Virus record (IMG/VR): IMGVR_UViG_3300028423_000861
Location: 32,001 to 96,000 of that record
Length of the DNA: 64,000 nucleotides
Reading direction: 5' to 3' (one strand)
Source: a virus
The translations under genes and the position numbers were made by a program. A model generated the notes under the pieces. The model worked only from the letters and a program-made list of their open reading frames with translations. It searched no databases and had not been told where the DNA came from. Positions 12,210 through 63,052 of this stretch are shown in pieces (position 1 is the first letter of the stretch; each line of letters starts with the position of its first letter).

Positions 12210-12285
12210 TGGTGCCCCATGTGGGATTTGAACCCACGCACTCAAGATTTTAGAGATCCTGGCTCTACCGCTGAGCTAATGGGGC
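12210..12285 (-). tRNA. Amber suppressor tRNA, anticodon CUA
   Basis: GCCCCAT TA GCTC AGCGGTA GAGC C AGGAT CT CTA AA ATCTT GAGTGC GTGGG TTCAAAT CCCAC ATGGGGC A CCA. Confidence 0.9.
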
Positions 12286-48820: not shown

Positions 48821-49076
48821 CTAGCTTGCGCATAGTTAATATTTGCAAAGCTTCGTCTGCTTGTTCATCAGGAGTCCATTCATCACAAGCACTCATTGAA
48901 CTCCAGGGATGACAGTTGTATTTGTCCCCAGGCTCTGGTGCTTTAGGACAATCATACGTTTGAAACTTTATACAGTGACGACAGATCCGTGTCGACAAAA
49001 ACATGAGTTCATAATCGCGTTTATCATTTAGATCCATTGTATTAGTATATATGATCAATTTTGGAAGGTCAATCAT
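48765..49076 (-). CDS. Small Cys-rich hypothetical protein
   Basis: CRHCIKFQTYDCP; start uncertain. Confidence 0.5.
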   Translation of the reverse strand: MIDLPKLIIYTNTMDLNDKRDYELMFLSTRICRHCIKFQTYDCPKAPEPGDKYNCHPWSSMSACDEWTPDEQADEALQILTMRKLDGTSDTREKTERGLDFGE

Positions 49077-49102
49077 AAAAAAACCCTGCACGATTGGCAG
49101 GG
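49077..49102 (-). terminator. Intrinsic terminator closing the giant RNA unit
   Basis: CCCTGC CAATCGT GCAGGG TTTTTTT. Confidence 0.8.
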
Positions 49103-49113
49103 CATTTGTGTTG

Positions 49114-49370
49114 AAAATTAGCAGACCATATTTCGAATTGCCCTATCCGGCCAGCACAAGTTGCTATCTTGTGCCTGGGCATGGCGGGTAACAAGTGTCT
49201 TCTGACAACCTTTATTAGCTAGATAAAAGTTATGCCTGTCAGTGCTAACCATCCGGGACAATAATAAATTTTCGACGCATTGGCCCCCTCCCGCCATGTC
49301 GTCCGACACGCTCCAAATGATCCCCAGCCCTCAGGCGGTCACCAAGTGTGGCGCTGTCTTTCCTGTGTTG
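49114..49370 (-). ncRNA. 3' structured RNA domain complementary to 51278-51381
   Basis: Local hairpins (GCACAAG/CTTGTGC, CTGACA/TGTCAG) and four nested long-range complements. Confidence 0.6.
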
Positions 49371-49371
49371 G

Positions 49372-50115
49372 TTATTTTCTTCCCCGAACCCAACCATTCG
49401 GTATATCACTATCTTTCTGTATTCGTTTATTTTTAACACCATCTGTTATCCAAACAGAGCCATACGAATAATTATTTGCACCAGTCATTGCGTTCGAAAT
49501 TTTTTGCTTTGTTTCAGTAGACAATTTATTGCCTTTTCTTGATTCACTCATCTTTTGTCGGGTTGCAGTCGATTTCTTTTTACCTACCAACGCTTCTGAC
49601 AATTTCTTACGATGCTCTTGAGTAATAACCCTTGGCTTTGGCTTCACTGATTTGTTATAGTATGGAATTCCTTGGCATCTTTTTGACATATAATGTTGCT
49701 CAAATGCCGAAACACTTATCTCATTCTGACATTTTAAGCAACATATTCTGTTATGCTTTTTTCCTTTAAATCCTGATGGTCGTTGTTTAGCTTTTTTACT
49801 TATTTTATCTCGAACTTCTGTAGTAAACAAGATTCCTGTATTAATTGAATTATTGTAAAAGGTATTTCCTTCAAATATTTCTTTTTTGTGTTCAGTTAAT
49901 AACTGTCTTTCTAAATTTATTGCTTCATAAGCATTGTCAAAGACTTGAATGATCTCACGTTTCCATTTAATATCAGGATCTTTCCAGTCTTTCCAAAATT
50001 CCTCTGAGCTACTTGATGAAATATATCCATCGTCAGTAGTTCCTTTGTGATACCCTATATATCGTTTGCCTAGTGTATTAGACCATTCATACACAAAATA
50101 TTCAACACGTTTCAT
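49372..50115 (-). CDS. Homing endonuclease, GIY-YIG-like with NUMOD3 repeats
   Basis: FVYEW...RYIGYH...GYISSS...E...FYN; HRKKLSEA/TRQKMSES/TKQKISNA repeats; own ATAAATA promoter. Confidence 0.8.
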   Translation of the reverse strand: MKRVEYFVYEWSNTLGKRYIGYHKGTTDDGYISSSSSEEFWKDWKDPDIKWKREIIQVFDNAYEAINLERQLLTEHKKEIFEGNTFYNNSINTGILFTTEVRDKISKKAKQRPSGFKGKKHNRICCLKCQNEISVSAFEQHYMSKRCQGIPYYNKSVKPKPRVITQEHRKKLSEALVGKKKSTATRQKMSESRKGNKLSTETKQKISNAMTGANNYSYGSVWITDGVKNKRIQKDSDIPNGWVRGRK

Positions 50116-50159
50116 AAATAAGCCTTTTAACTGTATACTTATTTATGTTAATAAGATGG

Positions 50160-51381
50160 AAATAGTGAGATTACCTAAATTTCCGCGGTTGCCTTTGGAC
50201 CGTACCGTAAACCTTGCGAGTCTACGTTAATCCGTTATCCACTAAGCGCCTTTCAGCTGACTTAGTATCAACCAGTGCTGCCTAGTTTAAAGTGGTGGCA
50301 TTTCCACTATCGTTACACGCTACTCGTCCTTTGATCTTCCGCCTGCCTTGCGAGCAGTTCAGAGTCGCTAAACCCTTACGTCTTCTCTCCGAACAAACAC
50401 TTCCGCCTTGCGAGCTTCCATGCACGACATTCACCGTAGTGTGTCGTATTAAGCACCTTTAACGTGCAACTGAGGCAGTCTTTGCGTTTTTGCTATAATG
50501 CATCTGCAGGATTTGAACCCACACATTCAGTTCCTAAAGACTGACGCTCTACCATTGAGCTAAGTTGCTAACCTACCAAGACGTGCTGCCTCTTGTTGCT
50601 TCGCATCCTTTTGGGAAACGAAATACAACACGCCTAAATGCCTTTCTCCTTGCGGGATACTAAACGTCTTTTCAAGTATCCAGCTACCTCACTAGTCGGT
50701 AACTCTCAACTTTAAAGATAACAAGTTGCCCTCCTGCGCGAACAGTCGGACTATTTGTTTACCCGTTAACATTCTGTCTTCGCTAGATTGGAGTGCATAG
50801 CTTTGGCTCCCACCAAATTGTAACCTCGCCGGTTGGCCCTGGTTACTATCCTTTCGGGCATTTGCTCTAGCTTAGGACTTACCTCGCTCTTCACAAGGGG
50901 TGCGCTACGGCTTATAGGAATACATCCGTCTGCCACCTAGTCCGGGCTTGCGTAAATGGACCATTGCTGGCGCAAGTGCGTAGGCTTCCTTGCTTTGGCA
51001 GTGTTACCACTGTTATCCTCCTGGACGTCACGCCGCCCATGTTCTTGTCTTAGATGATGAGTGTGCAGACATGTTGGGATTTAACCAACGAGTCGATTGC
51101 CTGGACATTTGTGTAAGCAAAGGGAAAGGAAATTGACAATCAACACCATCACCTTTGTCTGCACACACGACATCTAAGACCATTTTACAATAATCGGCTT
51201 CTATGTTTTTATATACACACCACTCGCATTTTGATATTATCTCAACGTTTTGACTGCATGGATCTTCCATCGCGGCGCAGGAAATTTCCTTTCAGGCCCG
51301 ACGCAGCGGATTGTCCCGCGATTCCATGACCAGGCAGTGTGCATGTAAAAACATAGTTGCCTATGTTGGTCTGCTAAATTT
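50160..51381 (-). ncRNA. Giant structured ncRNA with GOLLD-like core (5' limit of core uncertain)
   Basis: About 1.2 kb with no credible ORF; repeated GCAAG-capped hairpins; embedded tRNA-like domain. GCGUGUUGUAUUUC, AAAGGUGCUUAA and terminal GUAAUCUC resemble GOLLD as recalled, not searched. Confidence 0.65.
50499..50569 (-). tRNA. tRNA-like domain with 8-nt anticodon loop (CUUUAGGA), no CCA
   Basis: GCTC AATGGTA GAGC, TCAGT/ACTGA stem, GTGGG TTCAAAT CCTGC; mismatched acceptor stem. Confidence 0.65.
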
Positions 51382-51409
51382 TTAAAGAGCGTGTTGAGCT
51401 TTGCTCAAC
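51379..51409 (-). promoter_or_regulatory. Hairpin followed by a boxA-like antitermination element
   Basis: GTTGAGC AAA GCTCAAC then CGCTCTTTAAAAA (rrn boxA consensus TGCTCTTTAACA). Confidence 0.65.
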
Positions 51410-51419
51410 TTGTTTTACC

Positions 51420-51448
51420 AATATAGTGGTTTTATTTATGTTCGTCAA
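51420..51448 (-). promoter_or_regulatory. Sigma70-type promoter for the giant RNA
   Basis: TTGACG-17 bp-TATATT. Confidence 0.75.
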
Positions 51449-51466
51449 CCACTTTTTTCAACTTTT

Positions 51467-51790
51467 TTAGTTAAGCTTGCGATTTTTGCTTTCGCCAGTC
51501 AGCTTTTCGAAAAAGAGCCCGACAAGCTCTTCATCACTCATTTCTTCAACAACATCTTCATCAAGATGGCTGAGGTCTTCAAGCATTTCGTTCAACGCTT
51601 GGAGTTCACGATCAGACATGTCATCCGGATCCAGCTTGTAAGGTTCAGCCTTTTCAAGGAGCGAACCATCATTGGCCATTTGTTCAAGCTCTGCAATGAA
51701 CTCGTCAAGTTCTTCCTGGGTGCCATCAAATTCATCAAGAGCACCCGGTGCAAACGTAATCTTTATTTTATCTTCTTTGTCATCTGTCAT
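51467..51790 (-). CDS. Hypothetical acidic protein
   Basis: ITFAPGALDEFDGTQEELDE. Confidence 0.7.
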   Translation of the reverse strand: MTDDKEDKIKITFAPGALDEFDGTQEELDEFIAELEQMANDGSLLEKAEPYKLDPDDMSDRELQALNEMLEDLSHLDEDVVEEMSDEELVGLFFEKLTGESKNRKLN

Positions 51791-51828: not shown

Positions 51829-52287
51829 TTATTGTGTTTTATCCAAGACGTTTTGATTATTTTGGATATTCCATGCAGGTTGGATATAATTGATGAGGAA
51901 ATTTTCTTCAACATCAATTAAACTCATCGTCTGAGACACGGCCCCAGAAAACAAATCAATATGTCTGACCTCACTGTTACAACCATAAATCATCACTCGA
52001 TCGTTTTCAAGGGTTTCGCGCAATTTATAGGCTTTGGTAATACCTGTAACGCTGTTGCCGCGCCACCCACCACGATGTTGTTTAAACCTCTGCTCAAGTC
52101 CTTTTCCGGCCTTGCCCACATAAATTACTTCATCATGGGCTACCCAAAGATAAACCTGTGGAATCTTTTGTTTGAATTTGTCTTCTTGGATAACAAAATC
52201 AACAAGATCTCGATCATTGATAAAGATTTCACCAGCATATTCAAAATATAATTTTTTTATTATTTCAGAAGCAGATTTTTGATTCAT
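51829..52287 (-). CDS. GIY-YIG nuclease domain protein
   Basis: VYLW...IYVGKA...RFKQH...EE..LI...PAWN. Confidence 0.8.
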   Translation of the reverse strand: MNQKSASEIIKKLYFEYAGEIFINDRDLVDFVIQEDKFKQKIPQVYLWVAHDEVIYVGKAGKGLEQRFKQHRGGWRGNSVTGITKAYKLRETLENDRVMIYGCNSEVRHIDLFSGAVSQTMSLIDVEENFLINYIQPAWNIQNNQNVLDKTQ

Positions 52288-62854: not shown

Positions 62855-62944
62855 TGGCGGAGGGCCCGAGAATCGAACTCGATGCGCTTTCACGCACAAT
62901 CGGTTTAGCAAACCGTTCCAGGCACCAGCCTGATTGTACCCTCC
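62855..62944 (-). tRNA. tRNA-Ser(GCU) with long D-stem and tetraloop
   Basis: CAGGC TGGT GCCTG D-arm; CGGT TT GCT AA ACCG; variable arm; GCCA. Confidence 0.85.
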
Positions 62945-62962
62945 AGGTATTCATATTTATTT

Positions 62963-63052
62963 TGGCGGATAGGGTGGGAGTCGAACCCACACGACGCTTT
63001 AAGTCCTAACTGATTTCAAATCAGCGGCCACCTCCAATTGGCTTGCCTATCC
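62963..63052 (-). tRNA. tRNA-Ser(UGA)
   Basis: GCTGA TT TGA AA TCAGT; variable arm; GCCA. Confidence 0.88.

Follow-up and report, generated by a model that had tools for sequence, protein, structure and literature searches.

A phage GOLLD RNA in a putative transcription unit laid out like a bacterial ribosomal RNA operon

We analyzed a 64,000-nucleotide (nt) stretch of a 142-kb uncultivated phage record (IMG/VR record IMGVR_UViG_3300028423_000861; the whole stretch is called the window here) and concentrated on a region of its minus strand, 51459-49077, that carries a GOLLD RNA. GOLLD RNAs are among the largest non-coding RNAs of bacteria and phages, and the structure of their cage has been solved. 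We estimate a probability of roughly 65% that 51459-49077 is a single phage transcription unit organized like a bacterial ribosomal RNA (rRNA) operon, with GOLLD in the place of 16S rRNA. The unit is a known giant RNA in an rRNA-operon-style setting, together with uncatalogued accessory modules and an apparently mobile endonuclease gene, and not a split or permuted RNA. A signal scan places one promoter and one terminator around the 2.3 kb, with no further minus-strand promoter or terminator between them. The parts of the unit are listed below in 5' to 3' order (bp, base pairs; transfer RNA, tRNA); relatives are cited by our locus numbers (L036, L130 and so on).

51420-51459, minus strand: promoter, with -35 and -10 hexamers at 51448-51420 (10 of 12 matches, spacer 17) and an A-rich UP-like tract upstream
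51393-51409, minus strand: boxB-like hairpin with a 7-bp stem and a 3-nt loop, a palindrome from the scan
51379-51390, minus strand: boxA-like element, 11 of 12 positions identical to the boxA of Escherichia coli rrnH
51367-51381, minus strand: leader strand, the 5' side of pair 1; 14 bp with 49128-49114, -18.9 kcal/mol
51198-51359, minus strand: X-hairpin, a self-contained, branched 160-nt hairpin module with a 22-nt invariant core (three-sequence consensus fold)
51047-51180, minus strand: second hairpin module with a 25-nt invariant pyrimidine-rich loop segment (pair probabilities about 1)
50162-51040, minus strand: GOLLD RNA (RF02032), with a variable 5' region (51040-50637) and a conserved 3' region (50636-50162)
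50498-50569, minus strand: tRNA-like element in the GOLLD linker, with an 8-nt anticodon loop (Rfam tRNA, 50.1 bits)
49372-50115, minus strand: Seg-like GIY-YIG/NUMOD3 homing-endonuclease gene (247 amino acids), between GOLLD and the conserved 3' element
49268-49365, minus strand: conserved 3' element ending in the "Y hairpin", which has an invariant G-rich loop; also in L130, L150, L151 and L152
49129-49267, minus strand: variable 3' subdomain, holding the 3' strands of pairs 2 and 3; common to L150 only
49114-49128, minus strand: trailer strand, the 3' side of pair 1, ending 10 nt before the terminator stem
49077-49103, minus strand: intrinsic terminator, a 7-bp stem (49103-49083) with 5 G-C pairs and then a run of seven T

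Leader, trailer and the helix between them

The first-pass annotation had drawn a promoter and a terminator around this region, and both are in place on the minus strand: a sigma-70-like promoter at 51448-51420 and an intrinsic terminator at 49103-49083 with its T run. The promoter of the next gene follows the terminator (49072-49044). The A-tract, -35 and -10 of the window align with the region upstream of the boxA leaders at seven other GOLLD loci (L036, L047, L073, L075, L076, L078 and L103), and they also align with P2 of E. coli rrnH. The likeness to rrnH continues downstream. When aligned to the actual rrnH leader, boxA and the next 11 nt are identical at 21 of 23 positions, and the window and rrnH agree in the succession of their elements, from -35 through boxB hairpin and boxA to the leader strand. 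The boxB-like palindrome lies between promoter and boxA as it does in rrnH; other phage leaders have hairpins of differing sequence at this position. BoxA is likewise conserved upstream of GOLLD in other phage contigs. Leader-trailer helices and boxA are established features of rrn operons (PMC10250234), and the E. coli counterpart of the stretch after boxA pairs with the trailer right after 16S.

The leader strand of the window begins within the 3' end of the boxA-like element and has an equivalent partner at the far end of the unit. Of four pairs proposed earlier between the two ends, the outermost (pair 1, 51367-51381 with 49114-49128) is complementary at 14 of 15 positions, and the ensemble, the best-partner and the compensatory evidence all support a helix. 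When the full 2309-nt transcript is folded with a partition function, the 11-bp core has pair probabilities of 0.8-1.0, and 14 pairs are present in the minimum-energy structure. Within 5 kb, the trailer strand is the best partner of the leader both in the window and in L130, a locus whose overall layout is that of the window (as is that of L110, from the same phage type). An exact 11-mer such as that of the outer pair was reached in 8 of 1000 dinucleotide shuffles of the 3' part. Between the window and L130, a C:G pair becomes U:A at 51373:49122 and an A:U pair becomes G:C at 51367:49128. Thus, the leader-trailer helix is real and covaries with a relative. Trailer strands of like kind stand directly before the terminator in L130, L150, L151 and L152. 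The last three loci were found through homologs of the downstream gene, and their contigs begin inside GOLLD and hence lack leader strands. Bracketing of stable RNAs recurs in GOLLD-carrying phages, because the boxA leader strand of L036 matches 12 nt after the last tRNA and so pairs beyond its tRNA array, bracketing 5.2 kb.

A different reading would make the region a string of independent small RNAs plus GOLLD, like a phage tRNA cluster, with an end-to-end complementarity that is inherited or accidental and has no role of its own. The modules are indeed separable and are found in other combinations, GOLLD is commonly located in tRNA arrays, and the helix is short. However, the helix has the position with respect to boxA that its rrn counterpart has, L130 retains it through compensatory changes and in a longer form, and the trailer strand persists before the terminator in four relatives despite the rearrangement of the neighboring 3' sequence. 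We consider this reading rather unlikely.

Several observations nevertheless weigh against an rRNA-operon plan. The covariation of pair 1 amounts to two compensatory events, seen in the one relative that has both strands (L130). At 14 bp the helix is short, at the low end for RNase III; it measures 19-21 bp in L130 and about 30 bp in E. coli. At most other boxA-led GOLLD loci, the stem after boxA closes locally ahead of GOLLD and not around it. The rrnH alignment contains no recognizable counterpart of boxC, and the likeness was scored against E. coli rrnH rather than against the leader of the host itself, whose mimicry would be conjecture; searches of viral and genome collections with the leader patterns gave no match, and the host's own rrn leader was not found in them. 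The bracket of L130 encloses two open reading frames (ORFs) as well, so that the unit is not purely a stable-RNA operon. Finally, the single transcript, the loading of Nus factors and the processing are predictions.

Among the three options that the first-pass annotation had offered, an rRNA-like processing scaffold fits best. Its remark that no described family has such a layout was too strong, because the layout corresponds to an rrn leader and trailer with a known RNA between them. A literature search for GOLLD together with boxA returned no relevant paper, and among the GOLLD descriptions that could be searched, none refers to a boxA leader, to a helix enclosing the RNA or to accessory modules at its flanks.

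Accessory hairpin modules and the inner long-range pairs

The three inner pairs had been read, together with pair 1, as a separate domain closing around GOLLD. Their complementarities are as described, at 12 of 13 positions for pair 2 (51324-51336 with 49172-49184), 9 of 9 for pair 3 (51310-51318 with 49254-49262) and 7 of 7 for pair 4 (51278-51284 with 49359-49365). As helices, they are not supported. The 5' strands of all three lie inside the X-hairpin (51359-51198), and in the whole-transcript fold the ensemble probability of pairs 2-4 is 0.

The X-hairpin folds locally. Across three full-length sequences, its local fold has 53 pairs, 13 of them changed on both sides, with 98.7% of cells paired; these values were reached by 0 of 500 shuffles, and slid controls gave at most 2 both-side-changed pairs. 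This fold takes up 11 of the 13 nt of the pair 2 5' strand, almost wholly in covarying helices. Of pair 3, the first two nt belong to a covarying local helix and another four to a mini-helix that is invariant; of pair 4, the last four nt are taken up by a helix that does not vary. Covariation in relatives supports pair 1 through its two compensatory changes, while in the X region it is the local fold that covaries instead.

Homologs of the X-hairpin occur in L110/L130 and L116/L134, and as the core in L109/L123 and L061; a covariance model of the module matched solely these loci. In L116, the X-hairpin lies within a tRNA array, with a tRNA directly after it and with neither GOLLD nor a 3' domain, and in L109/L123 and L061 it occurs without any 3' partner. 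A shorter second hairpin at L116 1397-1509 and L134 758-871 keeps the outer stem of the X-hairpin and has a different interior. It stands directly after another boxA leader, ahead of tRNAs, and hints that leader hairpins form one family in which the cores can be swapped.

The 3' side gives a similar picture. Directly after GOLLD or the inserted ORF, L130, L150, L151 and L152 all have the conserved 3' element. The loop of its Y hairpin is invariant in 4 of 5 sequences, and the lower stem is changed on both sides. The variable 3' subdomain, in contrast, is absent in L151, and in its place L130 has a small ORF and L152 an unrelated stretch of 300 nt; in the window the subdomain is predicted to close on itself. 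L151 and L130 thus keep the trailer or helix of the outer pair and have no counterpart of the pair 2 and pair 3 3' strands. L150 is the sole relative that shares those strands, and its contig lacks the 5' half of the unit.

In the same 1000 shuffles, a nested chain of all four pairs was reached 3 times and a chain of the three inner pairs alone 35 times. Pair 4 is at chance level, because a 7-mer was seen in 941 of the 1000. In a construct of the two ends, forcing pairs 2-4 costs about 10-12 kcal/mol of 156.

These results bear on the idea of a split outer RNA, in which the 5' 200 nt and the 3' 260 nt would be joined by four nested helices around GOLLD and the endonuclease gene, or in which pairs 2 and 3 would form as lineage-specific tertiary or alternative pairings after outer closure. 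In favor of this idea are the exactness of the complementarities, the rarity of the chain of pairs 2-4 among shuffles (35 of 1000), a forcing cost that is not prohibitive, and the fact that the window and L150 have remained identical in islands at the 3' strands of pairs 2 and 3, although the intervening sequence has diverged. It has to contend with the zero ensemble probability of pairs 2-4, the uptake of their 5' strands by local X helices (mostly covarying for pair 2), the X modules without a 3' partner in L116, L109/L123 and L061, the relatives L130 and L151 that keep the outer pairing without the pair 2 and 3 3' strands, the ability of the conserved 3' islands to pair locally with each other, and the chance level of pair 4. 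We judge a split outer RNA to be distinctly unlikely, and put similarly low odds on parts of pairs 2 and 3 forming as tertiary or alternative contacts. That pairs 2-4 are part of the fold is not supported, and their complementarity is only marginally unusual. What stands of the earlier proposal of one precursor whose ends fold into a separate domain is a region that reads as one unit from promoter to terminator with two ends that pair; the separate four-helix outer domain is not supported.

The second hairpin contains the two local helices that had been noted between the long-range pairs (51047-51056 with 51171-51180, 10 of 10; 51061-51071 with 51156-51166, 11 of 11), and comparison with L110 gives 27 pairs, 6 of them compensatory. 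As with the X-hairpin, these hairpin modules fold locally and their pairing covaries. Neither the X-hairpin nor the second hairpin, the conserved 3' element or the variable 3' subdomain has an Rfam match, and the two 3'-hairpin patterns returned only high-G+C (guanine plus cytosine) coding matches in IMG/VR.

Some further sequence matches were seen among the modules. An 11-nt complementarity exists between the apical region of the X-hairpin (51297-51276) and, in the second hairpin, the invariant pyrimidine loop (51135-51120); the match is kept in L130 with G-U pairs, and sites in GOLLD score as well or better. A pairing of the invariant X core with the 3' hairpin was discarded: although this hairpin ranks first as a partner in L130, a chance site ties with it, and in the window it does not rank first. 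A perfect Shine-Dalgarno-like run lies within the invariant G-rich loop of the Y hairpin (49290-49278). The paper on the GOLLD structure cites pull-downs that report ribosome binding (10.1101/2024.12.08.627333). In the variable 3' subdomain, a 63-amino-acid ORF was rejected as a gene, having no family match. The module map of L130 is based on coordinates from sequence comparisons of L130 and from the helix search and alignment with the window.

The GOLLD RNA and the endonuclease gene

The core that had been called GOLLD-like is a true match to Rfam RF02032, at 181.9 bits against a cut-off of 150, over 50636-50162 and model positions 1-416. With nhmmer, the whole 880 nt (51040-50150) align to many phage GOLLD loci, for example L090 (expectation value, E, 5e-92), and to Phaeobacter phage MD18. 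The tRNA-like domain noted within it is present at 50569-50498. ARAGORN reads this element with a four-letter anticodon and makes no amino-acid call. GOLLD is often located in tRNA arrays; tRNAs are known from the GOLLD linker, and GOLLD assembles as a 14-mer cage (10.1101/2024.12.08.627333).

Between GOLLD and the conserved 3' element lies the predicted homing-endonuclease gene. The ORF 50115-49372 had been assigned to GIY-YIG/NUMOD3 enzymes, and this assignment is borne out by matches to NUMOD3 (E 3e-12) and to PHROG 314, a homing-endonuclease family (E 1.8e-17). The match to GIY-YIG is weak (E 0.02, below the Pfam cut-off), yet it covers 73 of 78 profile positions. The full-length identity to annotated Seg-like enzymes of T4-like phages is 27-30%, and the G+C content of the gene is 0.28-0.35 versus 0.45-0.55 in the flanking RNA. 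In L150, L151 and L152, which lack the gene, the 3' end of GOLLD runs straight into the conserved 3' element; homology with the window ends at 50166 and restarts by 49342-49299, depending on the relative. These three endonuclease-free alleles show the gene to be an invader of the larger RNA unit, as had been proposed. L130 has an unrelated ORF at the same spacer (PHROG 23051, function unknown), and in L030/L032 and L042, HNH genes start within about 30-190 nt of where GOLLD ends on its 3' side; L026 has a weak HNH match there.

GIY-YIG endonucleases are common in phage group I introns. The outer parts of the unit could then be a group I intron, or another self-splicing or circularizing ribozyme, that has GOLLD and the endonuclease gene within a loop; the presence of a GIY-YIG gene and the pairing of the unit ends would agree with this, and a split or permuted ribozyme had been among the options of the first-pass annotation. 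However, the Rfam scan proposed there for the outer halves returned no intron or ribozyme match, nor any other, in either half at E up to 10 (48900-51600). There are no flanking exons; in their place, the promoter and boxA lie directly upstream and the terminator directly downstream. The endonuclease-free alleles keep all of the RNA parts, and the gene is just missing from the spacer. A ribozyme origin of the outer parts is thus extremely improbable.

Further observations concern genes and RNAs around GOLLD here and in other phages. Methyltransferase genes (FkbM-type, class I and DNA N6/N4 methylase) start about 30-200 nt from the GOLLD 3' end in several contigs (L031 1938-2630, L067 1894-2586, L073 10866-11489 and L100 2482-3225). 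A 152-amino-acid ORF at 51829-52287 on the minus strand, two genes upstream of the unit, has a weak GIY-YIG match just under the cut-offs (E about 2e-4 to 9e-4) and may be a second, degenerate endonuclease near the unit. In Phaeobacter phage MD18 (L021 3714-4129) and Xanthomonas phage XacN1 (L023 1439-1858), both cultured, a permuted two-piece transfer-messenger RNA (tmRNA) gene adjoins GOLLD; the non-coding gap in which they lie, about 2.5 kb, has no other annotation. Unlike these two loci, the unit in the window gave no Rfam tmRNA match at E up to 10. In L110 (1168-1240), ARAGORN reads the linker tRNA with a UCA anticodon, which reads UGA; its counterpart in the window has the 8-nt loop. Elsewhere in the window, the tRNA sites at 12210-12285, 62859-62944 and 62963-63052 include a tRNA with a CUA anticodon (amber-reading, labelled Pyl by ARAGORN) and a match to Rfam tRNA-Sec (53.4 bits, cut-off 47) beside a tRNA-Ser(UGA). 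The CUA tRNA, the tRNA-Sec match and the odd GOLLD tRNA-like element together hint at stop-codon reading by the phage.

Searches for relatives by way of neighboring genes brought little. IMG/VR searches with flanking proteins led to unrelated or GOLLD-free loci, and no exact match for the flanking proteins of the window is on record. Sixteen related phage fragments found through a 988-amino-acid protein contain no GOLLD, though most of them stop short of the region, and contigs with homologs of the upstream acidic protein have no adjoining RNA unit. The small acidic ORF of L130 was rejected as a homolog of the upstream gene of the window, the match reaching an E of only 0.027. A looser boxA pattern mostly matched an unrelated repeat in metagenome-assembled genomes of Desulfobacterota: in these bacterial contigs (L192-L247), the boxA-like run stands inside a sequence that is repeated many times and has a fixed 5' extension, an arrangement that resembles a dispersed repeat and not a set of rrn leaders.

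Proposed route and comparison with known systems

Given the rrn-like order of its parts, the unit might be expressed as follows. Judging from rrn biology, NusB/NusE and other Nus factors of the host would load on boxA, and RNA polymerase so equipped could transcribe the highly structured and mostly untranslated RNA over more than 2 kb without being stopped by Rho; Nus loading may also aid co-transcriptional folding. Synthesis of the trailer would allow the end-to-end helix to close the precursor. The closed helix could either protect the ends or offer a double-strand-specific nuclease such as RNase III a site for cargo release, and further trimming would then free GOLLD, which in other members is a 14-mer cage. 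By analogy with T4 SegB, the Seg-like endonuclease would be translated from the same precursor, and in a mixed infection it might cut endonuclease-free alleles near the GOLLD 3' boundary and so carry itself and the flanking RNA genes in.

A more elaborate role for the accessory modules can also be imagined. After helix closure, the X-hairpin with its invariant core, the second hairpin with its pyrimidine loop and the 3' hairpin with its G-rich loop might dock on one another or on GOLLD by loop-loop or pseudoknot contacts, giving a composite RNA larger than 1.5 kb or a scaffold for folding and assembly of the GOLLD cage. Among the candidate contacts would be portions of pairs 2 and 3 as well as the 11-nt match of the second-hairpin loop with the apical region of X. 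We regard such docking as quite unlikely.

If phages make GOLLD by the route of host rRNA, boxA mutants, strand-swap mutants of the helix and host rnc and nusB backgrounds would offer genetic handles in vivo. A route through Nus antitermination and a leader-trailer helix would, if true, account for the escape of a long untranslated RNA from Rho. The locus also contributes three RNA modules without a match to any Rfam family. Moreover, the GOLLD 3' boundary emerges as a recurrent landing site of putative homing endonucleases, which bears on the spread of RNA islands between phages.

The closest model is E. coli rrnH, with its P2, boxB, boxA and 16S leader-trailer helix cut by RNase III. In both, the elements come in one order, the leader strand sets in at a matching point behind boxA, and the cargo RNA is followed by the trailer. 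In the window, in contrast, the cargo is phage-encoded and consists of GOLLD, accessory hairpins and a protein gene, the helix has 14 bp and not about 30, and Nus binding and cleavage are predictions. With respect to GOLLD (RF02032), the core at 51040-50162 belongs to the family over its full length, and its linker has a tRNA-like insert; cage assembly would be by analogy with other members. For the endonuclease gene, the nearest studied counterpart is in T4, where SegB is a GIY-YIG enzyme encoded in the tRNA gene cluster that drives the inheritance of the surrounding RNA genes (PMC2330249). As with segB, the gene in the window is a free-standing, Seg-like GIY-YIG gene amid stable-RNA genes, and related phages have the region without the gene. 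Unlike segB, it is positioned at the GOLLD 3' boundary within a bracketed unit, its product is 27-30% identical to Seg proteins, and its activity is predicted. Finally, the GOLLD tRNA arrays with a linked HNH gene in mycobacterial and cyanobacterial systems share with our unit a stable-RNA cargo that includes GOLLD, a leader with boxA, a helix at the flanks and a nuclease gene at the trailing end, whereas the unit described here has no functional tRNA array, carries three accessory RNA modules that were not seen in the arrays, and encodes a GIY-YIG rather than an HNH enzyme.

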